A stretch of DNA of 64,000 nt from Acidobacteriota bacterium (GTDB lineage Bacteria > Acidobacteriota > UBA6911 > RPQK01 > G965248645): positions 1,782,590 through 1,846,589 of the forward strand of contig OZ252113.1 in the NCBI GenBank assembly GCA_965248645.1, in the 5' to 3' direction. Positions 3,940 to 63,480 of this stretch are shown here, one piece after another. Each line of letters begins with the position of its first letter. Position 1 is the stretch's first letter. The translations under genes were made by a program, and so were the position numbers. The notes under the pieces were generated by a model. That model searched no databases. It saw only the letters and a program-made list of their open reading frames with translations, and was not told where the DNA came from.

Positions 3940-3962
3940 CGCTCGTCTCCTGTTCGCCGGGC

Positions 3963-23834: not shown

Positions 23835-24974
23835 TCATTGCCGCTGCCGGAATTTTTCTAGTGCTTTAAAATCGAGTACCACCCCATGGCCGGGACGATC
23901 AGGGGCAACTGCCTTACCGTCCTGCAATTGTAACTGGTTTTCCAAAAAACGCTCAAGGCCGAATCCATGCACTTCCAGGTAGGATGGGTTCGCGGTTCCT
24001 GCTAGCAAGTGTACATGGATGTCGTGAATTCCATGAGACGTGACTGGCAATCCCCTGGCATTGGCGAGCTGAGCCACGTGGAGCCAGGGAGTGATACCAC
24101 CAAGTGTGGCGGCATCCGGTTCTGGAAAGTGGACTTTTCCCCACTTCATGAGAGTCTCGAACTCATAGACACTATGAAGGTTCTCACCGCTTGCAATCGG
24201 AATTCCCCCTTCCCGGACAATCCGTGCATGACCTTGGATATCCTCGGGAATAGTGGGCTCTTCCAGCCAGTACAGATCAAACTTAGCCAGTGCGCGGGCT
24301 GCCTGGACCGCCTCGTCGACCTCCCAACGCATGTTCGCATCCACCATGAGTGGCACATCGGGACCAAGGAAATCACGCATTGCACCTACTCGCTCAATGT
24401 CTTCCGATAGACACCTTCTTCCGACCTTCATCTTGATTGCATGAAACCCCTTGGAGAGAAAAGTGCGTGTTTGGGAAAAGAGAGCTTCGATCGGAAGGTC
24501 GAGATCGATGCCTCCAGCGTAGGCCTGTACCTCGCGAGTGTTTCCACCGATTAACCGCCAGAGCGGTTGGCCTTCATGCTTACCCAGTAAGTCCCACAAC
24601 GCGATGTCGATAGCAGCCATGGCGAACGTGGTTATGCCGCCTCGACCTACGAAATGTAGGGCCACCACATCTTTTCCCAGAGCTTGTTGACGGCGGTGGG
24701 GTCTGCGCCCAGCAGCAGCGGTTCCAGGTCGGATGCGATCACTCTCCGAATGGCGCTAGCGCCAATGTTATGGACGGTGTAGGTGTAGCCTAGACCTTCC
24801 TGTCCAGCGGTATCGATGACCCGTACCACAATTAAACCGAAGACCGAGATTTCTCCATGGGTAGAGTCCGAAAGTGGGTTATCCAGTTGGTATGCGAAAA
24901 TGATCCGCGTGAAGTTCTGCGATCTCCAAGGTGGTCTCCTCTCCTGGTTCTTGACTGGAGTGAAAGGCGCACAT
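23835..24974 (-). pseudogene. mandelate racemase / muconate lactonizing enzyme family (enolase superfamily) gene with two frameshifts (near 24870 and 24655)
   Basis: Three consecutive frames on the minus strand each carry a consecutive part of an MR/MLE protein. They are MCAFHSSQEPGEETTLEIAELHADHFRIPTG, then ..GEISVFGLIVVRVIDTAGQEGLGYTY.., then the barrel domain ..AMAAIDIALWDLLGK... The reconstructed length is about 380 aa. Confidence 0.65.
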
Positions 24975-31796: not shown

Positions 31797-32903
31797 TTAG
31801 AGGGAAAAACGCTTACGCAATCTATGAGCGGCAGTACACATCCGCCTTAGCTTTACGAATGCCTCATCAATGGTCGGTGGCTCCTCTGCGTCCGGAGCGA
31901 AACCGCAATCGGGGTTGAGGGATATACGGTCTGGATTTATAAGGGCCGCCCCCGCTGCCCCGATTGCTTCGATCTCTTCGACCGTTTGGAGGTGCTCAGA
32001 CCGAATGTCAATTACTCCCATTCCTACACCAAGGTGATCTGGAAGTAACTTCAAATCCGTGATCTCGCCCGTGTTCCTGTAGGCAAACTCAAGATTGATA
32101 CGGTCGATATGTAACGCAGCTAAGCGGGGTAATATCTGCTTGTAGTTTCCATCTACATCGCTTTGGCGTTTATAGACACTATGGCAACAGTGTAAATGAG
32201 TCTCGGCATCTAATCCCTCGACTATTGCGTTGATGGTATCGACGGCGATTGGGAGCTGCTCATCGATGTTCCACTCCTGCAGAAGGCGCTCATCACAGGT
32301 GTCGCCCCGCATGACTCGTTCGTCACAGAAGTAGGTTAAGGCCGGATCGTCCACTTGGATGATATCAATCCCGACTTCTACGAGATTTTTCCCCTCCCGA
32401 AGTAGAACTTCGGCGAGATGATCTATGAAATGCCGGCGTGAGGGATAGGCATCACGGCTGTAGTCTTCATGCCAGTAACGGGTAGCGATTAGAAAAGGGC
32501 TTGGAAGGGTGAATTTTGTAACCCGATCCGTGTTCTCAACAAGAAACTGGGCGTCTTCCCCAAAAACTGGTTCACTCGTTTGAATGCGTCGAACGACTAC
32601 ATTGGTCAAGTTATCCTCCCCTCGATACCTGAACTTGCGAACCTTTTCAAACCCTCCAATGCGATGCAAAAACTCACCAATATAGTGAACACGCCTCCAC
32701 TCGCCGTCGCTTACGACATCCAAGCCCGCCTGTTCCTGAAGACGAATAGCGAAGAGAACCATGTCATCCATAGCACAGCGGAAGCGGTCTCGCGACATCT
32801 CCCTCTTTGGCGCCAGGAGGTCCAACAGCACCTTTGGACGCGGCAGTGAGCCTATGACATGTGTATAAAAAAGTGGGAGATGCTTGGTGTTTTCCGTGAT
32901 CAT
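31797..32903 (-). CDS. cobalamin-independent methionine synthase-like protein (MetE C-terminal-domain-only family, Meth_synt_2)
   Basis: The 368-aa single-domain MetE-like protein carries the motifs VIGSLPRP..VVSDGEWRR.., with a histidine/cysteine zinc-site context in the C-terminal half. Confidence 0.8.
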   Translation of the reverse strand: MITENTKHLPLFYTHVIGSLPRPKVLLDLLAPKREMSRDRFRCAMDDMVLFAIRLQEQAGLDVVSDGEWRRVHYIGEFLHRIGGFEKVRKFRYRGEDNLTNVVVRRIQTSEPVFGEDAQFLVENTDRVTKFTLPSPFLIATRYWHEDYSRDAYPSRRHFIDHLAEVLLREGKNLVEVGIDIIQVDDPALTYFCDERVMRGDTCDERLLQEWNIDEQLPIAVDTINAIVEGLDAETHLHCCHSVYKRQSDVDGNYKQILPRLAALHIDRINLEFAYRNTGEITDLKLLPDHLGVGMGVIDIRSEHLQTVEEIEAIGAAGAALINPDRISLNPDCGFAPDAEEPPTIDEAFVKLRRMCTAAHRLRKRFSL

Positions 32904-32989
32904 AACTCGATGCCAAATCCTTATCTAACTTGACGGAACTGTCAAGTTAATCTCTCCTGAGAATTGTCGCTACCTGTATATCGCGCTGC

Positions 32990-33120
32990 CTCGCTCTTGT
33001 TAGTGAAGGCTTGCGTGCGGAAGAGGCATTGGTTAACTGCTTTGAGATGGTCACATCAAGGTTGGAACAGATCCAGTACTGGACCACGGAAAGATTGGTC
33101 AAGATGGCAGGAATATGTTG
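32990..33120. repeat. diverged interspersed repeat, copy A (shares the core AACTGCTTTGAGATGGTCAC and upstream GGCTTG..GAGG block with the copy at 41190-41420)
   Basis: Direct comparison of the sequence with the other copies. Confidence 0.4.
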
Positions 33121-33265
33121 GCTGAATATTCCGTGCTTGTAGTACGAATCCATTTCGAATAGATTTTTTGTGCAGCAATTAAGACGCTAGGTACCAGGAT
33201 TGGCATGAGGCACCCGGTAGCACTGAGTTCCAGTAGAGGATTGAGAGGCACGCTCCGATTCGGTA

Positions 33266-35959
33266 TTGAAGGGTACCCTCACTAACAATGGCCACTTACG
33301 AGCTTCCAGACTCCAGGTTATCACCATCGGAAAAAAGATGAGCTATCCTTCATTTCGTTGTAGTGCTCTGGGTATGTTGGGACTAATCCTCACCTCCAAT
33401 GTGGCAGCTACCACTACTGAAGATGCCATTGTGCAAACAGCCCAGGGGGTTTTGAAGAAGCACTGCCTGAGTTGCCATGGTGCCATGGGTCAGTCCGACC
33501 TAGATTTGCGCAGTCGGGAAAGTACACTGAGGGGTGGTAAGCGTGGTCCGGCAATGGTACCTAGCAAGCCCGAAGAAAGCCTCCTTTTTTTAGCCGCTTC
33601 CCATAGAGGAGAGTTGAAGATGCCGCTGGGGAGTGCTATGACCATCCCGGAAGAGGAACTAGCGGTTCTGAAAGATTGGATAGAACAGGGAGCCCCCTGG
33701 ACCGAAGAGTCTTCGGTCGTGCTCAATGGAACCCCATGGTGGTCGTTTGAAAAACTCCGGCGGCCACCGATTCCAACACTGGACGATGGCGCTGATTTCT
33801 ACAATCCAATTGACGCATTCGTGGTGGCCAAGCTAGAAGAAAAAGGTCTGAGGGCAGCTCCTCGAGCGGGAAAGCGAACGCTAATTCGGAGAGCCTATTT
33901 CGATCTTTTGGGTCTGCCGCCCACCCCCGAACAAGTTGAGCGATTCCTCAAGGACACCTCTCCAGACGCCTATACGAATCTCATCGAGCGGCTTCTCGCC
34001 TCTCCCCGCTATGGGGAACGCTGGGGCCGACACTGGTTGGACGTGGTCCGGTACGCCGATAGTGCTGGGTTCGAAGGGGACATCTATTATCCAAATGCCT
34101 GGCGCTACCGTGACTACGTGATCAAGTCCTTCAACGAAGATAAGCCTTACGATCGGTTTGTTCAGGAGCAAATCGCTGGGGATGAGCTCTGGCCGAATAA
34201 TCTGGAACTGGAAGGGTTCTACGATATGTCTCCGGAAAAGCTTGAGCACCTGGAAGCCAGAGTAGGAACCGGTCTCTATACATTCGGCCCTGAAATTCAG
34301 GAGTCCCATCTCGATGGAACCCGATTACGGTATGAGCGGCAAACGGATTGGGTAAACATTACGGGAGCTGCTTTTTTGGGTCTCACTCTTGAATGTTCCC
34401 GTTGTCACGATCACAAATTCGATCCCATTCCCCAGAGGGATTACTTCCGACTTCAGGCTATCTTTGCCGCCAGCTCACCGGTGACAATTGCAGTGGTGTC
34501 ATCCATGTCGGTGGGTCATCGGGATGAATACTACCACCGGATGCTGGCCCTGGACGAGGTGCGGGATGCCTACCTCGCTTTTGAAAAAATGGTCAAGGAC
34601 CGGGTGATCGATTCCAAAAAGAAGGACTACCGGTCTGAGGTAGTTCGTTCCTACGAAGTTCCGGCGGAAAAGCGCACCATCGAGGAGGCCGAACTAGCAG
34701 AACCCTTGGTCAAACTCTACCAAGGAATCAACATTGAAAAGTTTCTTGCTGAAGAAGAAGTCGAGCGTCAGAAGGAACTGAGCCGCCAACTGGTGAAGAT
34801 AGTAACGAGTGTTCGGGGTGAGGATCCGTCTCATAACGTTCACTTTGACGGGTTTTATGATGTGCCCTCGGCCACGGTTCTGGGCCATATTGAACCGGAA
34901 TTGATTTCCGACGTCTTCGTGCTCGACCGGGGGGAGTTGGAGAGGAGAAGAGAGAGGGTTAGCGCAGGTTTTCCAGTCGCGTTGCGCGACGAGACCACAC
35001 CGGATGACTTACCAGTGGATGCGATGGGACCTCGATACCGAAGGCAGTTGGCCCTATGGCTGACTCGGCCACACCATCCACTGACAGCTCGAGTCATTGT
35101 CAACCGAATTTGGCAAGGGCACTTCGGACGGGGGATCGTAGGAACCACCAATGATTTTGGACGTCAGGGGCAGCCCCCCACCCATGTGGGGTTAATCGAC
35201 TGGCTCGCCTCTGAATTTGTCAACTCCGGCTGGAGCATCAAATCTCTACACCACTTGATCATGCACTCGGAGGCTTATCGGCGGTCCAGCCGATTTACGA
35301 GTCCAAAACACAGGTATGTGGATCCGGATAACCGTTATCTTTGGCGAATGAACCGGCGGCGATTGGAAGGAGAGACGATTTGGGATTCGATCCACTTTGT
35401 GGCGGGAACTCTTAACCTGCGCATGGGTGGACGCCCTTCAATTCCTCCCCTCTCGGAGACTGAACTGGCTCCCTTGCGTATCAAGGCCTGGTGGGTCACT
35501 CCAGCTGATCCGGCGGAAGGAAGGAGGCGGGGTGTCTACATCATGGTGAGACGTAACTTCACCTTTCCCATGTTCGATAAGTTTGACATCCCCAATCCGT
35601 CGGTGAGTTGTCCTCGGCGAGAGGTTACCACGGTAGCACCCCAGGCTCTGTGGGGGCTCAACAGCACGGTTACTTTCCAGCAGGCGAAGCAATTAGCTAC
35701 TCGTCTAGTCGGTCAAGAGGGAGATAATCCCTCGCGATGGATCGAATCGGCTTGGCGCTTGGCTCTGGCTCGTCCCCCCTCCGCCAAAGAGAAGCAAGAG
35801 GCGCGAACTTTGCTGGCTACCCTGGCCTCAAAAAACCGAGATAACGTTATTGAGCCTTTGCCAGATACAATGCTTCGGCTTGAGCCTGGACGCGCTGCTG
35901 CACTGATCCAGCTCTGCTTAACTATCTTTAATCTTAACGAGTTCATGTATGTTGACTAG
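33266..35959 (+). CDS. PSD1-type protein (PSCyt haem-binding domain + DUF1549 + DUF1553)
   Basis: An N-terminal CLSCHG motif is present. The architecture is conserved in Planctomycetota/Verrucomicrobiota, with the C-terminal block LCLTIFNLNEFMYVD. The real start is probably at MSYPSF (33335), which has a signal peptide. Confidence 0.85.
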   Translation: MKGTLTNNGHLRASRLQVITIGKKMSYPSFRCSALGMLGLILTSNVAATTTEDAIVQTAQGVLKKHCLSCHGAMGQSDLDLRSRESTLRGGKRGPAMVPSKPEESLLFLAASHRGELKMPLGSAMTIPEEELAVLKDWIEQGAPWTEESSVVLNGTPWWSFEKLRRPPIPTLDDGADFYNPIDAFVVAKLEEKGLRAAPRAGKRTLIRRAYFDLLGLPPTPEQVERFLKDTSPDAYTNLIERLLASPRYGERWGRHWLDVVRYADSAGFEGDIYYPNAWRYRDYVIKSFNEDKPYDRFVQEQIAGDELWPNNLELEGFYDMSPEKLEHLEARVGTGLYTFGPEIQESHLDGTRLRYERQTDWVNITGAAFLGLTLECSRCHDHKFDPIPQRDYFRLQAIFAASSPVTIAVVSSMSVGHRDEYYHRMLALDEVRDAYLAFEKMVKDRVIDSKKKDYRSEVVRSYEVPAEKRTIEEAELAEPLVKLYQGINIEKFLAEEEVERQKELSRQLVKIVTSVRGEDPSHNVHFDGFYDVPSATVLGHIEPELISDVFVLDRGELERRRERVSAGFPVALRDETTPDDLPVDAMGPRYRRQLALWLTRPHHPLTARVIVNRIWQGHFGRGIVGTTNDFGRQGQPPTHVGLIDWLASEFVNSGWSIKSLHHLIMHSEAYRRSSRFTSPKHRYVDPDNRYLWRMNRRRLEGETIWDSIHFVAGTLNLRMGGRPSIPPLSETELAPLRIKAWWVTPADPAEGRRRGVYIMVRRNFTFPMFDKFDIPNPSVSCPRREVTTVAPQALWGLNSTVTFQQAKQLATRLVGQEGDNPSRWIESAWRLALARPPSAKEKQEARTLLATLASKNRDNVIEPLPDTMLRLEPGRAAALIQLCLTIFNLNEFMYVD

Positions 35960-36016
35960 AAAGAGTTCTCGACACCAAGGAACGCTCGACGTCAGTAGCG
36001 TTTCGTTTCTGGCGCC

Positions 36017-37498
36017 GTGTATAATTCCCCTGGGAGAAATCCTATGAACCAATATTCCTGCCATCTTCAGGCTACGGTCCGCTCGCGACGTCAGTTTCTG
36101 GCCCAGTCCGGGCTGGGTTTTGGTTCCTTAGCACTCGGTTATTTGTTGAATCGAGACGCGATAGCTACGACTAAGAAGATCTCTATGAGAGTCAATCCAT
36201 TGGCTCTCAAGGGACCCCATTTTCCTGCCTCGGCTAACAGTGTTATCTTCGTCTTTTTGCAGGGCGGCCCTAGCCAAGTCGACACCTTTGATCCTAAACC
36301 AGAACTCAATCGGCTCGATGGTCAACCCCTTCCGCCCAGTTTTCTGAAAGGAGGCTTGCCATTGGCGCAGGTGAAGGCCGAAGAGTGCAAACTGATGGGG
36401 ACCCGGCGTAGATTCAGTCGGTGGGGGGAGTCAGGGTTGGAGATAGCCGATATTTTCGAAAATCTAGCGCAGTTCGCAGATGATCTAGCCATTATTCGCT
36501 CTTGCTATCACGAGTCTTTCATTCACGGCCCCGCTATCAACCTGGTTCACACTGGATCAACCTTACTCGGGAATCCCAGCATGGGATCCTGGGTCCTTTA
36601 CGGGTTGGGAAGTGAGACCGATAGTCTGCCCTCGTATGTTGTCATGGCAGACGATTACATGCGCAACGGAAAATCAGTAGTGGGGTCTGGTTTTCTGCCC
36701 GCAGTCTACCAGGGAACCGTTTTTTCCACCCGGGGAGCCCCCCTAGAAAATCTCTCACCCCTTGCACAGGTCGGAGTCGAACGTCAGCGCATCATGCTGG
36801 ATCAGCTGCAGGCGTGGAATCAACGGCATCTCGACGAGCGTCGTGATGATTCCAATCTTGCAGCGCGGATTAGCAGTTACGAGCTCGCGTTTCGGATGCA
36901 AGCGGAAGGTCCCGAACTGATCGATCTGAGCGCAGAACCAGAGCCCGTTCGGAGAATGTACGGCATGGATGTAGAACCGACCGCTAACTTTGGTCGAATA
37001 TGCCTGTTGGCTCGGCGCATGGTGGAGCGTGGAGTGCGTTTTGTTCATCTCTACAACAGCGATTGGGACGGCCACGGTGAATGCGACAAGAACCACAGGG
37101 AAAACGCTTTGAAGACCGATCTACCCTTAGCCGGCCTCTTGGGTGACCTGAAACAACGTGGCTTGTTGGAAACTACTCTGGTCGTTTGTACTGGGGAGTT
37201 CGGGCGCACACCCATTATGCAAGGAAAGGAAGGAAGAGATCACAACCCCTATGGATTCACTACTTGGATGGCAGGAGGGGGCATTAAAGGAGGCCAGGCC
37301 ATCGGCTCTACTGACGAGATTGGATTCCGAGCGGTGGAAGACAAAGTGCACGTGCACGATCTCCACGCCACCATGCTGGAACTTCTCGGACTGGATGACA
37401 AGAAGCTTCACTTCCTGGTGTCCGGCCTTGAGAAAAGACTTACCGGGGTCGGGGACGAGGGTAGTAAAGGAATCGCCAAACGGCTGGTGGCCGGTTAG
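36017..37498 (+). CDS. DUF1501 (sulfatase-like) protein with twin-arginine signal, canonical partner of PSD1
   Basis: A TAT-like N-terminus (SRRQFLAQSGLGFGSLALG) is followed by a DUF1501 core. The gene lies immediately downstream of the PSD1 gene. Confidence 0.85.
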   Translation: MYNSPGRNPMNQYSCHLQATVRSRRQFLAQSGLGFGSLALGYLLNRDAIATTKKISMRVNPLALKGPHFPASANSVIFVFLQGGPSQVDTFDPKPELNRLDGQPLPPSFLKGGLPLAQVKAEECKLMGTRRRFSRWGESGLEIADIFENLAQFADDLAIIRSCYHESFIHGPAINLVHTGSTLLGNPSMGSWVLYGLGSETDSLPSYVVMADDYMRNGKSVVGSGFLPAVYQGTVFSTRGAPLENLSPLAQVGVERQRIMLDQLQAWNQRHLDERRDDSNLAARISSYELAFRMQAEGPELIDLSAEPEPVRRMYGMDVEPTANFGRICLLARRMVERGVRFVHLYNSDWDGHGECDKNHRENALKTDLPLAGLLGDLKQRGLLETTLVVCTGEFGRTPIMQGKEGRDHNPYGFTTWMAGGGIKGGQAIGSTDEIGFRAVEDKVHVHDLHATMLELLGLDDKKLHFLVSGLEKRLTGVGDEGSKGIAKRLVAG

Positions 37499-37729
37499 TA
37501 CTACCTGGACAGCGCTAGATCGTGCCGGGAGAATATTTTCTTTGTGATCGACCTAGGTGTCAGCCAGCATGTAAGCGAGGGGTTAACCGAAACAGGGTCG
37601 CATCACTTGCATGCTGGCTAATTGTGGCCCAGAGTTTTCCCTTGAAAAGATGAGTTCCAGGGTAGTAGGGGGGGGTTCCGGGCACGAGGCTTAGCTCTTG
37701 AGAAGACTCTCTCCTCGGTAAATCAGACC

Positions 37730-38215
37730 ATGACCTTCCTGTTCTTTGCGTTAGTGTTGGCCCAGTCCAACCTGAGTGTCTCTCCTTCTTACCAAGGAAA
37801 GATATACCTTCCTGTGAACCTTTGGACTGTGAAGGGGACTCTCTTGGAGAAAGGCTCCTATTTAGTGAAGATTAAGAAACATGAAAGCGGGAACCATGTT
37901 CTGGTATTCTTCTCCGGCGGCCAGAGCCGGGCCCAAGTGGTGGAAAGTGCTGGAGAGAACTTGGATTTCGAGAGCGCCGAGATTCCCTTGGTCGGAACCC
38001 ATTATCTCGTTTCTACCGCTGAGCCCATTGCACCGGCTGAAGAGAGGCGGCGCAGCAAAACCGGAATGCCCAGATATCAGGAAGAGAGTCGCGATTGGAA
38101 AGCTGCCCTACGAGTCTACCAAGCGCAGCTGGAAGGGGACGTTTTCTTTATTTATTTCGAGCGCCAGGAACACGGCAAATGGAAGAAGACCTATTTCAGA
38201 CTCCTTTCCCGATAG
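37730..38215 (+). CDS. hypothetical secreted protein (third gene of the PSD1-DUF1501 cluster)
   Basis: The N-terminus is signal-peptide-like (MTFLFFALVLAQSNLSV). I recognised no family. Confidence 0.45.
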   Translation: MTFLFFALVLAQSNLSVSPSYQGKIYLPVNLWTVKGTLLEKGSYLVKIKKHESGNHVLVFFSGGQSRAQVVESAGENLDFESAEIPLVGTHYLVSTAEPIAPAEERRRSKTGMPRYQEESRDWKAALRVYQAQLEGDVFFIYFERQEHGKWKKTYFRLLSR

Positions 38216-38559
38216 GTTCCTCCCGACGCTCCAAACTCTTAATAAGGGATCCATAAGCTGCACGGAAAATTTTAGTTTGCATCCTGGGACACTGGATCAC
38301 GTTGGTATTTCGATCGGTATGCGGGAAGTGTTTTCACATGCTAAATCACGGGATACTGCACCATGGAAAAATGTGCTACCTCACGCGCTGTACGGCCTGA
38401 TGGTCTATGATGAGATACTATCGCACCATTGTCCGATCATTCTTGAAGTCAAAGATCAGGATACGGGGCGTGCCACTGCTAGAGCTCTACTGAAAATATA
38501 ATCAGTAGCCTTTTGAAACAGAGGCGCTGTCTGGGTTAGGGCTGGAGCCTCACCAGCGC

Positions 38560-38900
38560 TTTTAAGAGAACGTTTAGTCGCATCCTTGTCTCTTGGCGTT
38601 GGTGCGCAGACTACCGATGACTTTGTCGTGTTGATCCAGCACTCGCCAAGGCTAAGGGAATTAGCTGTGAATTTTGCTAAACAAGTGGTCCAGGTGCCGA
38701 AGTTTGTCGAGCCGACCCTGCCTCCGTTAGAGAACAGGCCTGTACGGTTGTCTAAAATTTGAAGATTAGCAGCGATCAGGTTCGTACGAGACGGTGATCC
38801 CATGCTCAGTAAGCAAGTGCTCACCGTCTCGAAAACTCAGTGCAAAGCGATAGTAAAGACAGACTGGGTTAGCGATGAGTTGCGACGGAGAACGACGACC
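38560..38900. repeat. diverged interspersed repeat, copy C (about 75% identity to 41190-41420 over the core; contains a perfect 11-bp hairpin stem CGAGACGGTGA/TCACCGTCTCG)
   Basis: Hand alignment gives AGGTTCGTACGAGACGGTGATCCCA..CAGTAAGCAAGTGCTCA..GTAAAGACAGACTG versus AGGTTCGTATGAGATGGTGATTCCA..CAGCAAGCAAGTCATCA..GTAAAGGCAGATG. Minus-strand ORFs begin MSTCLLSMGSPSRTNL and MMTCLLNLESPSHTNL. Confidence 0.45.
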
Positions 38901-38971
38901 TGAATGCTCTATGAAGACTTAGAGAAGTCACCGCAACCGTTTGAACCTACTTGCTATTTCTATCTGAACGA

Positions 38972-39282
38972 CTAAGCTTTCAGGCGTGCTCCGATCGATC
39001 TGATAATCACTGCAAGAGCGGCAGCATTGATCAGAGTAGAAACTCCGGCAAGAATATTGGTGATGTGTCCCCCAACAGCTGGTATATTGCTTAAAGCACC
39101 ATATACAGAGGACAAGACGAGAGCTCCAAGTAGCACACTGACCTTATCAGAGTCATCGGTGGGATAACCTAAGACTAAGCCGAGAATCGCTAGCACGAGG
39201 CCAGCATAGGGAATTGAAACCCCAACTCCAACGACCAGGCCAGAAGCAGACCCAAAATGAGAACAATTTTGGGGAAATTCAT
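38972..39282 (-). CDS. small hydrophobic membrane protein; frame ambiguous
   Basis: An AAGGAG Shine-Dalgarno sequence lies 6 nt upstream of an ATG at 39282 (MNFPKIVLILGLLL..). That frame hits a stop after 30 codons, while the long ORF 38972..39358 is in a neighbouring frame. This implies a frameshift or a short peptide. Confidence 0.3.
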
Positions 39283-39538
39283 TGTGAACTCCTTGTTTAA
39301 TCAACCGTTGACAAGCAACAAGGAAACGATTGTGACTGATAGCCATAAGGAATTGCAACTCTAAGCATGCAACTTTTTTGGAATCATGCTAAGAGGCCTG
39401 GAGATAAGGACCCTTGTCTCAGCGCTGGCAGCCAGCACTGAAGAAGTCTTCAGTGCAAATGGATCCGAGGGTTTGCTCTGCGAAAAGGTGGTAGAAAAGC
39501 GCGTAATCCAACGTTAGGGTCTGCAGAGATTACAATCA

Positions 39539-40566
39539 ATGGGGTATCCACTGGACTCAGGTAACCACAACATCTTGTGGTTGGGCTCACGGGGCCTCGG
39601 CGTCCCAGTCGGCGACGATCGATCGATACGGCGTTGGGTCCACGGCGACTGCCTGCTGCACAAGGCGGTAGAAGAGTTTTCCCCGGCTGCGTGAGTTGCG
39701 CCGGTTGAAGCGGAACACAAACTCGTCGAGGTAGTAGTCCAGATGCTCGTGGCTAACCGCGCCTTGGTGCGTGCCCAGCAGCCAGCGCTTGAGCAACGAG
39801 ATCGCTTGGTGCACCCTCGGCAATAATTCCGAGGCCTGCTTGCGGCGGCCCGACAGAAAGACGGTGCGATGCTGGTAGCCCTTCTTCTCCAGCGGCTCGT
39901 AGCCCAGCCAGCCGTCGGTGTGCACCAAGCTTCCCGGCTCGACCGACTCCTCCACGAAGGGCATCAAACTGGCCGCCGATGCGTTCCGCAAGCGCTGCAT
40001 GCGGATCCGTCCTAGCCCGCGGCCTCTCCCTTCCGCGGCTATTTAAATCAATGCTTTACGCTCGTTCTGCCGGCCGCTAACACCCTCTTACTCAGCGCCC
40101 CAATAGGTCTCATCGACCTCGACTACGCCCGCCAATCGCTCCCGCCCCGGACGCACCATCGCTCGCCGCAGCTTGTGCATCCAGGTCCACGCAGTTTGAT
40201 ATCTGCCCAACCCGAGAACGCGCTGCAGACCCAGCGCGCTGACCCCGTTCTTTTGCGAAGTGACGTGCCAGATCGCCCGGAACCACAGCCGCAGCGGCTT
40301 ACGTGTGTCTTGGAAGATCGTGCCCGAGGTCACCGACGTCTGCCGCCCGCAGCGAGCGCATTCGAACCACACTTTGCGCACCGGCCAAGCCCGCTCATGC
40401 CCGCATCCCGGACAGCGGAAACCCTCCGGCCAGCGCAACGCGGACAGATAGTCGCGACAGGCCTCTTCGCTGGCGAAGCGTACCTCGAACTTGAGCAGGT
40501 CGCGTGGATAATCCTCCACGAAGGCACATACTACATCTTGGGGTCACCTGAGTCAAGTGGATACCA
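39539..40566 (-). mobile_element. IS1595-family insertion sequence, copy 1 (about 1.03 kb), flanked by an ATTACAATCA direct repeat
   Basis: Imperfect terminal inverted repeats are GGTATCCACTGGACTCAGGTAACC and GGTATCCACTTGACTCAGGTGACC. The element is near-identical to a second copy at 52353-53390. TTACAATCA occurs immediately outside both ends (8 bp is typical for the IS1595 family). Boundaries are uncertain by about 10 bp, because TACAA.CAATGG also precedes copy 2. Confidence 0.75.
39587..40519 (-). pseudogene. IS1595-family (ISXO2-like) transposase interrupted by in-frame stop codons
   Basis: The N-terminal zinc-ribbon part is CPGCGHERAW..FECARCG, and the C-terminal DDE part is ..SLVHTDGWLGY... 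The two ORFs are in the same frame and separated by two TAA codons. The linker looks shortened relative to what I recall of ISXO2-type transposases. Confidence 0.7.
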
Positions 40567-40769
40567 AATTACAATCATTCGTAACAAGGAGGCCAAGGGA
40601 AACCAACCTCCGGAATCAATATGAGGGATGTCGGTTAATACGAGGTTGGCTGGGTAGTAGGGAAAACGCCCTTATATGTCGTGCGGAACAACAATTGAGG
40701 CCAGTATGGCATTCTGTCCTAAATGTGGAGTATCTGAGCCCGCCGTGGCATGTGGAAAGGGTCCTTAAA

Positions 40770-41120
40770 GTGATTTGTCCTCAATGTAAGGCTGAATATA
40801 GGTCAGGGTTTACTGAATGCTCGGATTGTTAGGTGCCGTTGGTGGCAGAATTGCCAATGGAAGGGGAGTCACCAAGAGATCTAGAGCTACAGCAGAAGCG
40901 GCTCGGGCAAGGCCTGAATCTTGTCAGAGTCTTCGAAACGGAGAATCCTACAATCATTATGGTGGCGAAATCCCTATTGGAGGATGCTGGTATCGAATAC
41001 TTCTCATCAGGTGAACAGCTTCCATTTGGATTTAACCCTTTATCTGGATCTCTCGTGATCGGGGTTCGGCACGAGGAAGCGGAGGAAGCCAGAGAATTGC
41101 TGAAGAATCTGTCATGTTAA
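40770..41120 (+). pseudogene. zinc-ribbon + DUF2007-like small protein with an in-frame TAG at 40830-40832
   Basis: In one frame the sequence reads ..VICPQCKAEYRSGFTECSDC-TAG-VPLVAELP..VRVFETENPTIIMVAKSLLEDAGIEYF... The zinc-ribbon CPxC..CxxC-G-VPLV consensus expects Gly where the TAG sits. A GGAAAGGG Shine-Dalgarno sequence precedes the GTG at 40770. An additional upstream zinc knuckle (MAFCPKCGV) lies in another frame. Confidence 0.45.
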
Positions 41121-41189
41121 TCTCAGCGGAGCAGGTGTGCCCACGCGCGTGTGCCTGCCTGGTTGCTTTCTTCAGTGCGCGGACGTTGT

Positions 41190-41420
41190 CTCTCTCTGAT
41201 GGGCACAGGCTTGGTCCCGGAGGAGTCTCGCTGCTGAACTGCTTTGAGATGATCACGACCAACTCGGGATAGATTCTGCCGGAGAGCACGGGCGTACGCT
41301 GATCGAAACTGTTAGAACCAGTGCCGAATAGGTTCGTATGAGATGGTGATTCCAGGTTCAGCAAGCAAGTCATCAACGTGTCAAAAACCAGGGTGAACCC
41401 ATGGTAAAGGCAGATGTATG
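41190..41420. repeat. diverged interspersed repeat, copy B
   Basis: See copies A and C. Confidence 0.45.
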
Positions 41421-41535
41421 AGGGATAATCTAAGGCGGAAATAGATGACCTTGCATAGAGTGACTCCGTATACCAATTGTTGCTGTATCCCGCTTAACTT
41501 GACAGTACGACTGTAAGGTTTTAAAGGAACTTGTC

Positions 41536-42762
41536 TCATCGGTACCAATTGTAATGGAGACCCAGGGAGCGGTCCGCGAGGGGTAGTTTGATGCGGGCAC
41601 CGCCTTGAGCTGAGGATTGCTTGAGCGCGATCTCCACTTCAAGAGCTACCGCCACCCGGCGTCCGGAGTTCTTGGGTTCGTCCATTTCCCCCGCCACACA
41701 CTTCATGAGGTCATCCAACGAATAGACTGCTCCATAGGGTGGGACGAACTGCGGATCCGGCCAGGGCTTCTGGACGCGTTCTTTGCTCCCAGAAGGCGTA
41801 GTAACATCCTGCCAAAGTTGCCAGCGGCGCTGCTCATGAGTAAAGCTGATCTCCCCGTTGTCGCCGCTGATCCGTACTCCGGGGGCTCCTCGGCGGAAAT
41901 GAACCACCAATCCATTTTTCGTCACCATCATTCCTTGACCGACGAACTCGTTGCTACCTCTCTCGCGCCGAGGTTTGTCTCCCGTGCCACTGACCCAAGT
42001 CGGCGGGCTGTCTAGAAAATAAGACCAGTTCTGATGTTGTGCCCCCGGTCCCCAGGCCTCAATAGAAAGCACTTGTCCAATGGCCCCGCTAGTCACTAAT
42101 TCCTTGGCCTTCGCAAAAGAGGGATGAGTGGTGGTGATAGCTCCACAGCATAGGGGAATTCCTCGAGAGGCGCAGCTTTTCACCATCTGGTCGGCCTCCT
42201 CTAGCGTAAAGGCCATTGGTTTTTCCGTGAAAATGGCCTTAGCCCCTATTTCAGCCGCCTTGACAGTTAGAAAAGCACGCCCTTTAGTGTTTGTACAAAC
42301 AGCCACAATATCCAGCTGCTCCTTTTGCAGCATCTCGATAGCATCTGTGTAGAGAGCCTTCAGACCGTAGCGTTCACCGAAAACCTTTAAGCGCTTTTCG
42401 TTGCGGTCAGCACCAGCCACGAGGTCCACTTCAGGGCGCCCCCACAAAGCTTCGGCGTAGGAAGTAGGCAAGCCTTCGTTGCCCGGATGATCGTGATAGT
42501 AAAACTTTCGGTTAATATTCAACCGATCAGGATTAGGGCGATGGGGGTCTTCAACGCCGTAGGCGGGGTTCCAGTAAGAGCCTGGGCGGTCGTCTGCCCC
42601 CCTTTTAGCGAGATCGTACAGAAGACCCATCCAGCCCAGCCCAATGACGCCGGCCCGATATCTCAATTTGGAATCCAGGTTGGGCACGGCTATGCCCGGC
42701 ATAGACAAGCCCAAGGCAGCCCCACCTCCGAAAGTTGTCTTAATGAATTGCCGGCGAATCAT
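41536..42762 (-). CDS. Gfo/Idh/MocA-family oxidoreductase with twin-arginine signal peptide
   Basis: The TAT-like N-terminus MIRRQFIKTTFGGGAALGLS is followed by a Rossmann fold (GVIGLGWMG) and a GFO_IDH_MocA C-terminal domain. Confidence 0.8.
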   Translation of the reverse strand: MIRRQFIKTTFGGGAALGLSMPGIAVPNLDSKLRYRAGVIGLGWMGLLYDLAKRGADDRPGSYWNPAYGVEDPHRPNPDRLNINRKFYYHDHPGNEGLPTSYAEALWGRPEVDLVAGADRNEKRLKVFGERYGLKALYTDAIEMLQKEQLDIVAVCTNTKGRAFLTVKAAEIGAKAIFTEKPMAFTLEEADQMVKSCASRGIPLCCGAITTTHPSFAKAKELVTSGAIGQVLSIEAWGPGAQHQNWSYFLDSPPTWVSGTGDKPRRERGSNEFVGQGMMVTKNGLVVHFRRGAPGVRISGDNGEISFTHEQRRWQLWQDVTTPSGSKERVQKPWPDPQFVPPYGAVYSLDDLMKCVAGEMDEPKNSGRRVAVALEVEIALKQSSAQGGARIKLPLADRSLGLHYNWYR

Positions 42763-43449: not shown

Positions 43450-46329
43450 ATGAAAGGACGCTTCGCTTTTTTCTTCAGCTTGGGTGTGCTTGCCACAGGG
43501 CTTTCAGGGAAAACATCAGCAGAAAACACGAGTTCTTCATTACCCACATTCGAAAAAGAGATTCTGCCCATCTTCGAGAAGAGCTGTCTGGCCTGTCACA
43601 GTGCCCAGAGTCCTCAGAGCGGCCTGGTTCTGGAGACGGTAGAGTCTCTCTTCCAAGGGGGAACAGTCAGTGGACCGGCAGTAATCGCTGGAGAGAGCAG
43701 CCGGAGTCCGCTGCTGCTCTATCTGAAGGGAGAGAAAGAGCCCAGAATGCCGCTGGACGCTCCTCTGCCGGAAGCGGAGATCACCCTGATTGCCCGCTGG
43801 ATAGACCAGCTCAAACCGGCTGGTCAGAAGGAAGTTGAGACCCAACTGGCTGGTGGAATAACCTCTGATCAAGACTTTGAAGAGTCAATCCGGCCCATCC
43901 TAGAGAAAAATTGCTTTTCTTGCCACAACGCCGAGACTCACCGCAGCGGTTTGGTACTCGAGACGGTCGAGTCGCTGCTTAAGGGAGGCGGTGCCGATGG
44001 TCCAGCTATTGTGGCGGGGAAAAGTAGGGAGAGTCCCCTGATTCTTCATCTGCGGGGAGACAAAGCCCCGCGCATGCCGCTGGAAGGCGTTCCTTTGGCC
44101 GAGGAGAAAATCACCCGGATTGCCAGCTGGATCGACGGTCTGGAGGTCTCGACCATAGCCCAGGTCAAGCCGAAACTGGACTGGCCCTGGATCAAACTCG
44201 AGCGTCCGGATGTTCCGCAGGTCCAACACCAGGAATGGGTAACGAATCCCATCGACGCTTTTATTTTAGCCAAGCTGGAAACCAAGAGCCTAGAGCCGGC
44301 ACCAGCGGTCTCCAAACGGGCTTTGCTGCGCCGCATCTCCTTCGATCTGACGGGTCTACCGCCTACACCGGAGGAGATGCAGCGATTCCTGCAGGATTCC
44401 TCGCCGGATGCTTATGAGCGGCAGATCGACCGGCTACTGGCCAGCCCTCACTACGGAGAACGCTGGGCACGGCACTGGTTAGATTTAGTGCGTTATGCCG
44501 ACACTAAGGGAGGATATTACGATCCGATCTACCCTCATATCTGGCGCTACCGGGACTACGTCATCCGGGCCTTCAATCAGGGTCGACCCTACGACCGCTT
44601 CATCCGGGAACAAATCGCAGGGGACAGCTTCCGCCCCTATGGCGCGGAAGGGAGAATTGCCTTGGGCTTCATGCGCGTGGGAGCACAAACTGAATCGGGA
44701 GGTCGCCGGGAGATCTTGGATGACCTGGTGGGCACCACCGGATCGGTGTTCCTGGGGATGACTGTGGCCTGTGCCCGCTGTCACGATCACAAGTTTGATC
44801 CCATTCCCCAGCGAGACTACTACCGGATGGAGGCCTTCTTTACCCCGATGAGCATTACGGGGCCGACCGCCCTACCCTTCACCGAATACGAGCTGCCCCA
44901 TCAAGAGCCAGAGAAATGGGAGAAAAAGGCCGAAGCCTGGCAAGCACTCTATTCAAAGTATTATGCGAGAGCAAAAGCGATTGTAGCTCAGTTCAAGGAA
45001 CGGGTGAGAAGAGAACGCTCCTTCCTATCCCCTGAGGACCTTAAGGACCGGGTGGTCTACGGAGACGTTTACGCCTCCTACCGAGTCAGCGCTTTCGAAT
45101 TACGCGAAGCCATGCAGAAGGGCCTGCTGTTTAGTAAGGCGGAACGGGATCTGTACAATCTCGCCCGCCGTTGTGTCTCCCAGGGTAGCCCCATGCATCC
45201 CGATCTATATGAGCCCAAGGCCTACTCGGCTTCCGACCCAGGAGGCAAGGATCTTCCCTCCACTCCTGACACCTACGTCCTGAAGGTGGGAAATCCAAAG
45301 GCTAGAGGAGAGGCTGTGGGACCAGGTTTTTTGAGTTCTGCGATCGGGAATTCCGACCCGGTCGACCTGACGGGAGGCGGTAGCCACCGCAAGTTGCTGG
45401 CCGAGTGGATCTCCAGTCCCGAGAATCCTCTAACGGCTCGGGTGATGGTCAACCGGATCTGGCAGCATCATTTTGGCGAAGGGTTGGTGCGCACGCCCAG
45501 CGACTTTGGCCAGAACGGTTCGGGAACCCTGCATCGGGAATTGATCGACTGGCTAGCCTCGGAGTTCATCGAGCAGGGGTGGAACATCCAGGCCATGCAC
45601 CGGCTCATACTCGGCTCCAGTCTCTATCGCCAATCGATGTACCACCCTCGGGACCAGGAGTTTGAAACGATCGACAGTGCCAATCGCTATCTTTGGAAGA
45701 TGGGGCCGATTCGTCTCGAGGCGGAGAGCATTCGCGACAGTATCCTAGCGGTTAGCGGAGAGCTGAATCGGGATATGGGTGGCCCTGCGGTTTTTCCCGT
45801 CATCGATGATGAACTACAGAAGCGAGCGCTCACTATCTGGGAAGCCTCTCCCCAGCAGGAAAGGAACCGTAGAAGCATTTACATGATGCAGAAGCGAGCC
45901 ACCCCGACCCCTTGGATGGCGGTCTTTGATGGCCCTAATCTGAACCAGAGCTGCGAGGTACGCGGGGTCACCACGGTGACGCCGCAGGTCTTTGCCTTGT
46001 TCAACAGTGAGTTCGTCCACCGGCAGAGCCGCCAGATGGCCGCTCGCATCCGTCGCCAAGTGGGAGCGGATCCTGAAAGACAGATCGAGCGGGCCTTTGA
46101 ACTGGCCCTTCAGCGTTTGCCCACCCAGGGAGAAAAAGAGGAGTTTCGAGCGCGGTTGGGAACCTCTGCAGCGGTGCCCCGACCAGACATGGCCTTCTTG
46201 GGCAAGCCGGAAGGTGCACCTATGCCCATCTCCCTAACGATAGCAGGAGACCAACCCGGGAGTCCGGGATCGCTGGCTGATCTATGCCTGGTTTTGTTTA
46301 ACGTCAACGAATTCATTTTCCTAGAATAG
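43450..46329 (+). CDS. PSD1-type protein number 2 (two PSCyt CxxCH-like domains + DUF1549 + DUF1553) without an adjacent DUF1501 partner
   Basis: The motifs CLACHS and CFSCHN occur in duplicated N-terminal modules. The C-terminal conserved block is LCLVLFNVNEFIFLE. The length is 959 aa. Confidence 0.85.
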   Translation: MKGRFAFFFSLGVLATGLSGKTSAENTSSSLPTFEKEILPIFEKSCLACHSAQSPQSGLVLETVESLFQGGTVSGPAVIAGESSRSPLLLYLKGEKEPRMPLDAPLPEAEITLIARWIDQLKPAGQKEVETQLAGGITSDQDFEESIRPILEKNCFSCHNAETHRSGLVLETVESLLKGGGADGPAIVAGKSRESPLILHLRGDKAPRMPLEGVPLAEEKITRIASWIDGLEVSTIAQVKPKLDWPWIKLERPDVPQVQHQEWVTNPIDAFILAKLETKSLEPAPAVSKRALLRRISFDLTGLPPTPEEMQRFLQDSSPDAYERQIDRLLASPHYGERWARHWLDLVRYADTKGGYYDPIYPHIWRYRDYVIRAFNQGRPYDRFIREQIAGDSFRPYGAEGRIALGFMRVGAQTESGGRREILDDLVGTTGSVFLGMTVACARCHDHKFDPIPQRDYYRMEAFFTPMSITGPTALPFTEYELPHQEPEKWEKKAEAWQALYSKYYARAKAIVAQFKERVRRERSFLSPEDLKDRVVYGDVYASYRVSAFELREAMQKGLLFSKAERDLYNLARRCVSQGSPMHPDLYEPKAYSASDPGGKDLPSTPDTYVLKVGNPKARGEAVGPGFLSSAIGNSDPVDLTGGGSHRKLLAEWISSPENPLTARVMVNRIWQHHFGEGLVRTPSDFGQNGSGTLHRELIDWLASEFIEQGWNIQAMHRLILGSSLYRQSMYHPRDQEFETIDSANRYLWKMGPIRLEAESIRDSILAVSGELNRDMGGPAVFPVIDDELQKRALTIWEASPQQERNRRSIYMMQKRATPTPWMAVFDGPNLNQSCEVRGVTTVTPQVFALFNSEFVHRQSRQMAARIRRQVGADPERQIERAFELALQRLPTQGEKEEFRARLGTSAAVPRPDMAFLGKPEGAPMPISLTIAGDQPGSPGSLADLCLVLFNVNEFIFLE

Positions 46330-47417: not shown

Positions 47418-48596
47418 ATGAAGGACACCATCTGCGAGCTGCTCGCCTTTTATCTTACTCTGGTGATCTTTTGGTTTAGCGGTTGTTCACAAACTGCAGA
47501 GCTCGAGCAGAAGCAATCTAGTTACGAAGAAATACTTACGCGTGCCGAGCAAGGCGATGCCGAGGCCCAATGCAACCTGGGGAACATGTATCGCGATGGC
47601 AAAGGGGTTTCTCAAGACGATCAAGAAGCAGTCAAGTGGCACCGCAAGGCGAGCGGGGAAGGCTATGCCAAAGCTCAAAATAACCTGGGGAACATGTATC
47701 GCGATGGCAAAGGGGTTTCTCAGGACGACCAAGAAGCAGTCAAGTGGTACCGAAAGGCAGCTGAGCAAGGCTATGCCAAAGCTCAAAATAACCTGGGGAA
47801 CATGTACCGGGAGGGCTACGGTGTTCCTCAAGATGGCCAAGAGGCAGTCAACTGGTACCGCTATGCTGCCGAACAAGGTTATGTCGACGCCCAATATAAT
47901 CTGGGGCTTATGTACTACTACGAACGAGAGGGAGTCAGCCAGGACTACCAAAAAGCACTCAAGTGGTATCGAAAGGCCGTCGAGCAGGGAGATGCCGCCG
48001 CGGAATATGCTCTGGGGGTCATGTATGCCGAGGGCCAAGGCGTTGCTCAGGACTACCAAGAAGTAGCTAAGTGGTATCGCAAGGCCGCGAATCGAGGTCA
48101 TGCAACTGCCCAATATAATCTGGGGGTCATGTATGCCGAGGGCCAAGGCGTTGCCCAGGACTACCAAGAGGCCGTTAAGTGGTACCATTACGCTGCCGAG
48201 CAAGGCGATGCCAAGGCCCAATATGCTCTAGGGGTCATGTACGCCAAGAAGGCAGCTGAGCAAGGCGATGCTAAGGCCCAAAATAACCTGGGGAACATGT
48301 ACCTCGATGGTCACGGCATCCCTCAGGATGGTCAAGAAGCAGTGAAGTGGTACCGCAAGGCCGCCGAGCAAGGTGATCCCGATGCCCAGAGGCATCTGGG
48401 GGTCATGTATGCCATGGGCCAAGGTGTCCCACAGGACGACATACAGGCTCACATGTGGTGCAACCTAGCAGCTACCAACTTAACTGGAGAGGCAAGAGAA
48501 AAGGCCGTTGCATTACGAGACTTTCGAGCTGAACAGATGACTCGGGATCAGATCGTTGAGGCTGAGCGGCTAGCCCGGGAGTGGAAACCAAAATAA
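47418..48596 (+). CDS. Sel1-like repeat (SLR/TPR-like) protein, about 9 tandem 36-aa repeats
   Basis: The unit AQNNLGNMYRDGKGVSQDDQEAVKWYRKAAEQGYAK recurs. The N-terminus is hydrophobic. Confidence 0.8.
   Translation: MKDTICELLAFYLTLVIFWFSGCSQTAELEQKQSSYEEILTRAEQGDAEAQCNLGNMYRDGKGVSQDDQEAVKWHRKASGEGYAKAQNNLGNMYRDGKGVSQDDQEAVKWYRKAAEQGYAKAQNNLGNMYREGYGVPQDGQEAVNWYRYAAEQGYVDAQYNLGLMYYYEREGVSQDYQKALKWYRKAVEQGDAAAEYALGVMYAEGQGVAQDYQEVAKWYRKAANRGHATAQYNLGVMYAEGQGVAQDYQEAVKWYHYAAEQGDAKAQYALGVMYAKKAAEQGDAKAQNNLGNMYLDGHGIPQDGQEAVKWYRKAAEQGDPDAQRHLGVMYAMGQGVPQDDIQAHMWCNLAATNLTGEAREKAVALRDFRAEQMTRDQIVEAERLAREWKPK
47574..48480 (+). repeat. tandem 108-bp coding repeats (Sel1 units); the first two units (47574-47789) are nearly identical at the DNA level
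   Basis: Direct inspection shows a period of 108 bp, starting with AACCTGGGGAACATGTA. Confidence 0.7.
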
Positions 48597-61534: not shown

Positions 61535-62279
61535 GATTCACCTCCTTCAATGGGTGTGAGCTTCCTGTCAGATTTTCCTATCCGCCCTTAAGGTATGGTT
61601 AAGGTATGATCCAGATGATTCAAATGAGGCGTAATCCAGAAGTTTGGCCGTCACGGTATGGTAGCAAATTGTCCCGGGCGAGTCTGGATCACGGTAGCAG
61701 AGATGTCTCCATTGCTACGCTCTCTGAGCAGACCTTTAAACAGGTCCAGATCAATCGAGTTGTCCCAATCAAACTCGTCCTGGCAACTCAGCACTACTAC
61801 CCACTCCGGCTGAACCTATTTCCCCTCCCGAGAAAACGATCACACCTGCAGATCTGGTCTGAGACATAGCACCCTGAGTCCAGAAGTTGGCTTTCTCGAC
61901 TCTGCTCAAGGCTCAAGACACGAGCATAGATGCCCACGTGGGGCACCTTGGGTTGGGAGAAGTTGTTAGGTTTTAGCATCATCCTTCAGGTCTGCTTTCC
62001 ACCGGATTAATGTTACCTAAATCCTAAGCTACTAAGTCGGGATGTGTCAAGGATAAGTATCTGATATAAAATAGGTTTGTTAATGATCAGGCTCAACATG
62101 GAATCACCAGAAAGTCGCTGAATCGTTGTGTCACGGACCGGGTTGAAATCCCCTCGTAAAGGGGCGTCTTCTGAAAAAGTGTTGGCGGAAAGCTGAAAGA
62201 AAGCAGTTGGAGGTGACCTTGCCCCCTAAAACGAGTCCAGTTCGAATGTTAGGATTTCCGGTTTAGGAAGGAGGCAAGG

Positions 62280-62558: not shown

Positions 62559-62581
62559 GCCCGGCGAACAGGAGACGAGCG

Positions 62582-63451: not shown

Positions 63452-63480
63452 AGGGTGGACTCGTTCGTGGGGGCAGGTCA

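Follow-up and report, generated by a model that had tools for sequence, protein, structure and literature searches.

Probable relics of an IS6-family insertion sequence in a 64-kb stretch of an Acidobacteriota genome

IS6-family elements and the segments compared with them

According to PMC7986276, insertion sequences of the IS6 family range from ~700 to 890 bp in length, and their signature is a pair of short (15-20 bp) terminal inverted repeats (TIRs) tipped with GG and bearing a cTGT motif. The closest clade to the segments described here is IS6 (IS6/IS26) with GGCATTGTCAAGTT ends, examples of which are the "IS6 family transposase" element on the Sphingobium sp. YBL2 plasmid NZ_CP010959.1 and the metagenomic 230-aa PF13610 proteins P0026 and P0079. 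The annotated Sphingobium element is bounded by a perfect 16-bp TIR, GGCATTGTCAAGTTGC, while the intact relatives L001 and L004 end in GCATTGTCAAGTTAA and TGTCAAGTTAA, respectively. IS6 ends of this type read GGnnCTGTCAAGTT.

Three segments near 33.0, 38.7, and 41.3 kb (R1, R2, and R3) of the window, that is, of the whole 64,000-nt stretch analysed, very probably derive from a single lineage of IS6-family insertion sequence, of which they are non-functional remnants, all on the minus strand. When intact, the element would have been ~800 bp long, with one ~230-aa DDE transposase gene between 16-bp TIRs of the form GG..CTGTCAAGTTAA. An earlier note on this DNA had offered several explanations for the segments, and the first of them, decayed copies of a small mobile element, is borne out, the element being an IS6-family insertion sequence represented by transposase pseudogene fragments and TIRs.

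The remnants resemble the IS6 clade in their N-terminal helix-turn-helix (HTH; WLYHRF.LSFRDVE.LLAERGI.VSYE) and C-terminal ...RVGRHHLKAV... tail, in a TIR core with GG tip and CTGT, in the spacing from end to gene, and in an inferred length of ~795 bp. Unlike members of this clade, none of the three is intact, the damage including stops, frameshifts and truncations as well as loss of the entire DDE core by deletion; a recognisable 8-bp target duplication, which would be expected of IS6 elements, is likewise lacking. Measured across the remnants, their amino-acid identity with the nearest database proteins is only ~43-58%, and they share the lineage-specific motifs SYEP and RDHLKAV, neither of which is in the family consensus built here.

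Transposase fragments and the DNA they share

Pairs of segments were compared by local alignment and scored against 300 dinucleotide shuffles. Positions 38729-38863 and 41283-41414 align over 139 columns at 72% identity (78% ungapped), with a score of 76 against a shuffle mean of 19 (z=27) and ~135 nt in common, and positions 33007-33054 and 41207-41256 align over 52 columns at 77% identity (87% ungapped; z=9; ~50 nt in common). The 33.0-kb and 38.7-kb segments show no similarity in the same comparison (z=-0.3). The earlier note had described a repeat family at three loci and had proposed shuffled controls as its touchstone: two of the three pairs do align, both far above the shuffles, but the third gives nothing. 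Because the 33.0-kb and 38.7-kb segments lack similarity, there is no three-way repeat; the segments form a chain, in which the 41.3-kb one overlaps each of the others in a different part. All copies lie on one strand, as had been claimed, and the four motifs quoted at that time are non-random, each occurring exactly twice and at the places given: AACTGCTTTGAGATG(G/A)TCAC at 33035 and 41237, AGGTTCGTA(C/T)GAGA(C/T)GGTGAT(C/T)CCA at 38778 and 41330, CAG(T/C)AAGCAAGT at 38807 and 41359, and GTAAAG(A/G)CAGA at 38853 and 41404. The limits then assigned to the segments were too short, since the 41.3-kb unit spans 41105-41509 and the 33.0-kb unit starts at 32935. The apparent repeat family probably represents those parts of the transposase gene that survive where the remnants overlap.

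On the minus strand, all three segments contain fragments of IS6-family DDE transposase pseudogenes (PF13610/NF033587, ~230 aa), which were scored with a profile HMM built from 53 full-length PF13610 relatives. The coding relic of R2 (38586..38906, minus strand) corresponds to the N-terminal half, comprising the HTH and the first part of the DDE domain (aa 5-111), and contains four in-frame stops; its match to the profile has an i-E of 4.9e-24 (tblastn E ~1e-19). In a database of 5.8 billion proteins, R2 matched P0001 (PF13610) with E=3.7e-14 and 45% identity, a protein whose family comprises at least 7950 PF13610 proteins with a typical length of 230 aa. The frameshift-aware alignment of R2 runs on collinearly to profile position 158, which suggests a possible continuation at 38426..38585 (minus strand; aa ~109-158 after a frameshift), although the stretch beyond aa 111 is not significant when scored alone against shuffles (z=1.5). 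As regards terminal repeats, the left end of R2 is unrecognisable.

R3 is a 405-bp element (41105-41509, minus strand) with both terminal repeats. Its N-terminal part (41258..41466, minus strand) covers aa 2 to ~66 with stops and three frameshifts (HMM i-E=8.4e-12; tblastn E ~3e-10) and is fused directly to a C-terminal part (41178..41284, minus strand; aa ~197-229, one frameshift), so that the whole catalytic core is gone. In the frameshift-aware alignment, the junction to aa 197 reads ARALR followed by QNLSRVGRDHLKAV. The C-terminal part scores 70 in profile alignment against a shuffle mean of 29.5 (z=9.7) and is recovered by tblastn in two pieces, aa 197-213 and 213-229. The NCBIfam model NF033587 (transpos_IS6) matched the conceptual translations of R2 (E=7e-4) and R3 (E=0.022), while a Pfam scan of the stop-masked translations of R1-R3 gave no hit.

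R1 (32935-33139, minus strand) is comprised of a C-terminal tail and the right TIR. The coding relic, with limits taken from tblastn (32987..33139, minus strand), corresponds to aa 176-226, contains one in-frame stop, and aligns most firmly at aa 191-226. It was matched in tblastn by 43 of the 53 full-length relatives (best E=5e-4) and reached z=3.7 in frameshift-aware profile alignment; against the HMM, R1 by itself is weak (i-E 0.16), and nothing upstream of aa 176 matches the profile (z=-0.9). The DNA similarity to the C-terminal part of R3 has z=9, and the RDHLKAV motif is common to both. R1 is assigned on the combined strength of its tblastn matches, its likeness to R3, and the terminal repeat beside it.

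The presence of an IS6-type transposase with an N-terminal HTH is to be read as homology only: R1, R2, and R3 all lack an intact ORF with a complete DDE catalytic triad, and they are relics, not active family members. No intact master copy lies within the 64-kb window. Weak tblastn hits at 52237, 24522-24663, 18060-18359, and 2112-2267 were taken as chance, none of them being in the HMM report at E<=100; the hit at 52237 overlaps, out of frame, an ORF that appears intact. The differences between R2 and R3 fall evenly on the three codon positions (15/17/16), and neutral decay is therefore indicated; multiple stops and frameshifts are further signs of decay in the remnants. The copies may have come in by transposition of the replicative kind, with cointegrate formation, that is typical of the IS6 family, after which they would have lost function and drifted neutrally, presumably with no function at present.

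Two other explanations had been put forward in the earlier note. A duplicated gene 5-prime region describes the segments only narrowly, in that the transposase N-terminus is common to R2 and R3, but R1 is the C-terminus. The other, a family of structured RNAs, is hardly credible, and the same holds for a cis-regulatory family or for small conserved proteins (MSTCLLS..., NCFEM). The perfect 11-bp inverted repeat CGAGACGGTGA / TCACCGTCTCG exists and is unconserved, as had been reported, but it sits inside R2 (38787-38797 / 38821-38831) and not in the copy named for it, and it is made up of codons for RDGE and ITVS. (The labels B and C in that note are out of coordinate order.) The stability of the hairpin in R2 (folding z=-3.1 and -4.0) speaks for an RNA; however, R3 has z ~0, an alignment of intact relatives shows only partial complementarity at the site, and Rfam gave no match at E<=1 in 32500-42000. 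A conserved hairpin was accordingly rejected, being stable in R2 and absent in R3.

For a regulatory role, it can be said that R1 does lie between the divergent Meth_synt_2 and PSD1 genes, in their promoter region, as previously noted, and that an outward-facing TTGACA is found inside the terminal repeat. The distances from genes are nevertheless inconsistent, with R1 upstream of two genes and R2 and R3 downstream of minus-strand genes. A hybrid promoter formed from this TTGACA toward the Meth_synt_2 gene was considered and is not used in the promoter scan. As for small proteins, the similar N-termini of minus-strand ORFs (MSTCLLS.../MMTCLLN...) are out of the transposase frame and have no Pfam hit. 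The plus-strand NCFEM(V/I)T reads exist, although in the 33.0-kb and 41.2-kb segments and not in the pair named earlier, and they are on the wrong strand with respect to the transposase, again with no Pfam hit. Since the likeness of these alternative-frame ORFs ends where the DNA similarity ends, it counts against the small-protein reading, and the ORF and peptide likenesses are by-products of shared DNA. Taken together, the RNA, regulatory, and small-protein explanations are already largely refuted.

Terminal repeats and the internal deletion of R3

Each core at the ends of R1 and R3 is in the position and orientation expected of IRR or IRL. The R1 IRR (32935..32950, minus strand) reads GGAACTGTCAAGTTAA, with a GG tip and an exact 12-bp core CTGTCAAGTTAA at 32939-32950 (+), and is the same end sequence as in the intact relatives L001, L004, and L010; this repeat lies 37 nt past the last transposase residue of R1. 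Back-to-back against it is an inverted TIR-like sequence, CTAACTTGACGG (32925..32936, +), a 12-mer found as a minus-strand match with 2 mismatches, 2 nt from the exact copy and 22 nt ahead of 32903, where the Meth_synt_2 gene starts. The chance of such closeness is ~0.001, by a rough estimate from the shuffle count.

In R3, both cores, CTGTCA(A/T)GTTAA, are present in inverted orientation with mutated tips. The R3 IRR (41105..41120, minus strand) reads GAATCTGTCATGTTAA, and its core has one mismatch at 41109-41120 (+); the neighbouring DUF2007 ORF (40833-41120) uses the TAA of this repeat to terminate. The R3 IRL (41494..41509) reads CGTACTGTCAAGTTAA on the minus strand, with an exact core at 41494-41505 (-), and can be aligned to L001 and L004 at their IRL and 5' leader. 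It is located 25 nt before the start codon, a spacing identical in L004. Adding the ~130 missing codons to 405 bp gives an inferred original length of ~795 bp, which would fit the family size, though no full-length copy is present. The whole catalytic core has been lost in a ~390-bp internal deletion, leaving a 405-bp MITE-like shell. No 8-bp target duplication is recognisable around R3, as the flanks TTGCTGAA and ACTGTAAG agree at 2 of 8 positions. This absence is uninformative against a family origin, because it could reflect decay or a cointegrate/conservative history.

In size and structure, R3 is like a MITE: it has both TIR cores and a few hundred bp, with no functional ORF, and of the transposase there remain two fragments, fused together and ridden with stops. 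ISfinder has entries for two IS6-family MITEs (227 and 336 bp; PMC7986276), and the metagenome contig L006 contains an unrelated MITE of 382 bp whose IS6-type TIR is perfect, which shows that such elements exist. That R3 belongs to an active, trans-mobilised MITE family derived from this insertion sequence, beyond a one-off deletion, is nonetheless very unlikely. Unlike the known IS6-family MITEs, it keeps transposase coding remnants on either side of one deletion, and unlike a propagated MITE, it has mutated tips (GA.. and CG.. for GG), a mismatch in the IRR core, no target duplication, and no multiple copies found. No second copy of its junction occurs in the 64-kb window, and the both-ends pattern CTGTCANGTTAA-N{358,388}-TTAACTTGACAG gave no match in genome_contigs and only the unrelated AT-rich L006 MITE in metagenome_contigs. 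The interior of R3, moreover, decays neutrally, as does R2. R3 has the appearance of one dead deletion derivative and not of a MITE that has spread.

Bracketed genes and regional context

The three remnants are directly oriented and bracket gene segments, as do the flanking copies of IS6 pseudo-compound transposons and IS26 translocatable units. R1 and R2 bracket the PSD1-DUF1501 pair, while R2 and R3 bracket a membrane-protein gene, an IS1595 element, and the DUF2007 gene. Unlike pseudo-compound transposons, the flanking copies here are fragments that keep only outer portions, with no matching target duplications, and any mobility of the bracketed segments is putative.

It is possible, though unlikely, that a single IS6 copy was split into R1 and R2, or that each is the outer half of one of two direct copies in a pseudo-compound transposon. 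In both cases they would bracket a 5.3-kb passenger (33140-38425) with a 161-aa ORF, a PSD1/PSCyt gene, and a DUF1501 gene. Read on the minus strand, R1 (aa 176-226 and IRR) follows downstream of R2 (aa 5-111, or possibly as far as 158), and the two are in the same orientation, collinear, and complementary without overlap, which would agree with the typical flanking of passenger DNA by IS6 elements as direct repeats (PMC7986276). Same orientation and collinearity, however, have a prior chance of ~1 in 4, and the tail of R2 past aa 111 and the DNA upstream of R1 have the non-significant scores given above. No target duplication is common to the pair, the left end of R2 is unrecognisable, and R1 and R2 share no sequence by which a common origin could be judged. 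A protein search with Meth_synt_2 found three loci of 60-71% identity, with the labels Planctomycetota, Latescibacterota, and Opitutaceae. Synteny at these loci is limited to that gene, they carry no IS6 remnant, and no relative with an empty site was found among them.

PSD1/PSCyt-DUF1501 gene pairs are highly paralogous in Planctomycetota. It is rather improbable that R1 and R2 are the outer ends of one IS6-bounded unit with a PSD1/PSCyt-DUF1501 passenger; if this were true, IS6-type elements would have helped to move and multiply such pairs. Separately, it is likewise improbable that R3 is one copy of a mobilisable 405-bp MITE derived from IS6. Only if the bracketing of a passenger by R1 and R2 were confirmed would the remnants inform the spread of the paralogous PSD1-DUF1501 pairs.

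As IS6-family relics, the three segments are nothing unusual for a large bacterial genome, and beyond annotation the finding matters little. In annotation, the three stretches are to be entered as IS6-family pseudogene fragments, not as an enigmatic repeat or RNA family, and the overlapping alternative-frame minus-strand ORFs of 114-122 aa (38456-38824 and 41032-41376) should not be called genes. The remnants may also serve as approximate markers of old rearrangement points beside the PSD1-DUF1501 pair, and they add to the picture of heavy IS traffic, past and present, in the region. Two IS1595 copies and two IS3 copies are also located in this region.

Transposase identity of the three segments

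The three segments at about 33.0, 38.7 and 41.3 kb (R1, R2 and R3, respectively) are ordinary decayed IS6-family remnants, comprising a truncated C-terminal end (R1), a truncated N-terminal half (R2), and an internally deleted, MITE-like shell (R3). Their lineage is uncatalogued within this well-known family, and no indication of a present function was seen. Minus-strand translation yields reads such as LYYRFALSFRDGEHLLTEHGITVSYEP, which we took to be the N-terminus of an IS6-type transposase, and this lead was then put to the test. Stop-masked translations obtained no Pfam score, while the NCBIfam model NF033587 (IS6 family transposase) matched the 38.7-kb copy (E=7e-4) and the 41.3-kb copy (E=0.022). 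Among 5.8 billion proteins, the 38.7-kb translation matched one PF13610 protein, P0001 (E=3.7e-14, 45% identity), whose relatives include at least 7950 PF13610 proteins, typically of 230 aa.

The window was searched with 53 full-length relatives (225-235 aa) by tblastn and, in six-frame translation, by a profile HMM. On the minus strand, R2 (38906->38586) covers aa 5-111 (tblastn E ~1e-19, HMM i-E 4.9e-24), the N-part of R3 (41466->41258) covers aa 2 to ~66 (tblastn E ~3e-10, HMM i-E 8.4e-12) and is directly followed by a C-part (41284->41178, aa 197-229), and R1 (33139->32987) covers aa 176-226. R1 was matched by 43 of the 53 tblastn queries (best E=5e-4) and is weak by HMM alone (i-E 0.16). 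A purpose-written frameshift-aware profile alignment with shuffle controls confirmed R1 (z=3.7) as well as the C-part of R3 (z=9.7), and it places the R3 junction at ...AYARALR|QNLSRVGRDHLKAV..., so that the entire catalytic core (aa ~67-196) is missing. R1 and R3 have RDHLKAV in common (family consensus RHHLKAV), and R2 and R3 have SYEP (family consensus SYEA); all three are therefore assigned to one IS lineage.

Each of the shared motifs quoted in the earlier note is indeed present exactly twice in the window, the NCFEM-type motif at 33035 and 41237 and the remaining three at 38778/41330, 38807/41359, and 38853/41404. Pairwise local alignments were scored against 300 dinucleotide shuffles. 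Similarity was found between 38729-38863 and 41283-41414 (139 columns, 72% identity, z=27) and between 33007-33054 and 41207-41256 (52 columns, 77% identity, z=9), and is therefore real, but it is absent between the 33.0-kb and 38.7-kb segments (z=-0.3). Thus, the proposed three-locus repeat family is rather a chain linked via the 41.3-kb segment. The labels of the second and third copies also did not follow their positions along the window; the 11-bp perfect inverted repeat maps to 38787-38831.

Element ends and size

Flanking DNA of intact relatives was retrieved to define the element ends. The terminal inverted repeats (TIRs) are GCATTGTCAAGTTAA at one such locus (L001) and TGTCAAGTTAA / TTAACTTGACA, spaced 766 nt apart, at another (L004). 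Annotated plasmid IS6 family transposases are ~60% identical to P0079, a database PF13610 protein, and the TIR of one such element, carried by a Sphingobium plasmid, is a perfect 16-bp repeat, GGCATTGTCAAGTTGC. The TIR core CTGTCAAGTTAA has three sites in the window: exact on the plus strand at 32939-32950, 37 nt past the end of R1; exact on the minus strand at 41494-41505, 25 nt ahead of the R3 start codon, a distance also seen in L004; and with one mismatch on the plus strand at 41109-41120, ~58 nt past the R3 C-terminus. The left repeat and leader of R3 are alignable with those of L001 and L004, and the R1 end reads GGAACTGTCAAGTTAA. IS6 elements are 700-890 bp long, with a GG tip, a cTGT motif, and 8-bp target repeats (PMC7986276). 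R3 measures 405 bp with tip bases counted (41105-41509), and restoring its ~130 missing codons gives ~795 bp, inside the family range. Both of its tips are mutated; neither an 8-bp duplication flanking R3 nor a clear left end of R2 is recognisable.

Two IS6 MITEs are known (PMC7986276). A both-ends pattern sized for R3 had zero matches in genome_contigs, and its sole match in metagenome_contigs was an unrelated, AT-rich element on contig Ga0080004_1184533 (L006, 5278-5659). It is 382 bp long, lacks ORFs, and has IS6-type terminal repeats of 24 bp that match perfectly, GGCTCTGTCAAGTTAAGTAATACC; it is a clean IS6-family MITE from an organism unrelated to that of the window. Neither HMM nor TIR searches found more remnants in the 64-kb window, and a few weak tblastn matches elsewhere in it were inspected and discarded.

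At 32925-32950, IS6-end-like sequences stand back to back as a palindrome, CTAACTTGACGG-AA-CTGTCAAGTTAA, 22 nt upstream of the Meth_synt_2 start codon (32903); its left arm, with two mismatches, is directed at that gene. The palindrome may represent a second element's solo end, or an insertion targeted to a site beside an older end.

Decay and alternative readings

Where R2 and R3 align in frame, differences number 15/17/16 at codon positions 1/2/3, which is a neutral pattern, as divergence as working genes would give a third-position excess. R2 has four in-frame stops, R1 has one, and R3 has stops and four frameshifts. Profile matches, ends, stops, and frameshifts thus bear out decayed mobile-element copies, one of the options raised earlier. 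Another, a structured RNA, was not supported: at E<=1, Rfam gave no match in 32500-42000. Folding shows a stable hairpin in R2 (z=-3.1 and -4.0) that is missing from R3, and intact relatives have it only in part; since its arms are formed by RD(V->G)E and ITVS codons, it is regarded as accidental. No Pfam match was obtained for the minus-strand ORFs (38456-38824 and 41032-41376) or for the NCFEM ORFs of the plus strand, all of which are out of the transposase frame. A consistent distance of the copies from genes was not found; R1 has the divergent Meth_synt_2 and PSCyt/PSD1 genes on either side, and R2 and R3 each lie just downstream of a minus-strand gene. No synteny, and hence no empty site, was found at loci with Meth_synt_2 relatives.

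On the minus strand, R2 (the N-terminal part) lies upstream of R1 (the C-terminal part and right repeat), the two being collinear and complementary, and the 5.3 kb between them holds the PSD1 gene, a DUF1501 gene, and a 161-aa ORF. The IS6 family includes pseudo-compound transposons, whose IS copies are direct repeats (PMC7986276). This order fits a single IS split by insertion, or the outer halves of the paired copies in such a transposon, but we consider such an origin unlikely: a putative extension of R2 to aa 158 is not significant alone (z=1.5), and no profile match was found upstream of R1. The collinearity is possibly a coincidence.

Other elements and genes in the window

A 1036-bp IS1595-family element (Zn_ribbon_IS1595 and DDE_Tnp_IS1595 domains, minus strand; split into two ORFs, 40519-40088 and 40000-39587) occurs in two copies, 39531-40566, located between R2 and R3, and 52355-53390; being 98.4% identical, the pair is therefore much younger than the IS6 remnants. 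A 1267-bp inverted repeat (3041-4307 and 62214-63480, 99.2% identity) encloses ~58 kb, including R1-R3, and its 289-aa ORF (3070-3939, minus strand) reads by eye as a putative IS3-family OrfB. A coding region with a zinc ribbon (CPQC...CSDC) and DUF2007 (40557-41120) is broken by an in-frame TAG at 40830-40832 and ends with a TAA (41118-41120) within the R3 terminal repeat, so its original 3′ end may have been replaced when the IS inserted.

ORF 33266-35959 encodes a PSCyt1/PSCyt2/PSD1 protein and is followed by the DUF1501 gene, a gene content typical of Planctomycetota. It has three diverged DNA blocks (68-80% identity) in common with ORF 43450-46329, a putative PSD1 paralogue by this DNA similarity. 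Finally, a 211-nt repeat in six diverged copies (47538-48459; 63-82% identity, spacing mostly 108 nt) within ORF 47418-48596 suggests a repeat-domain protein.
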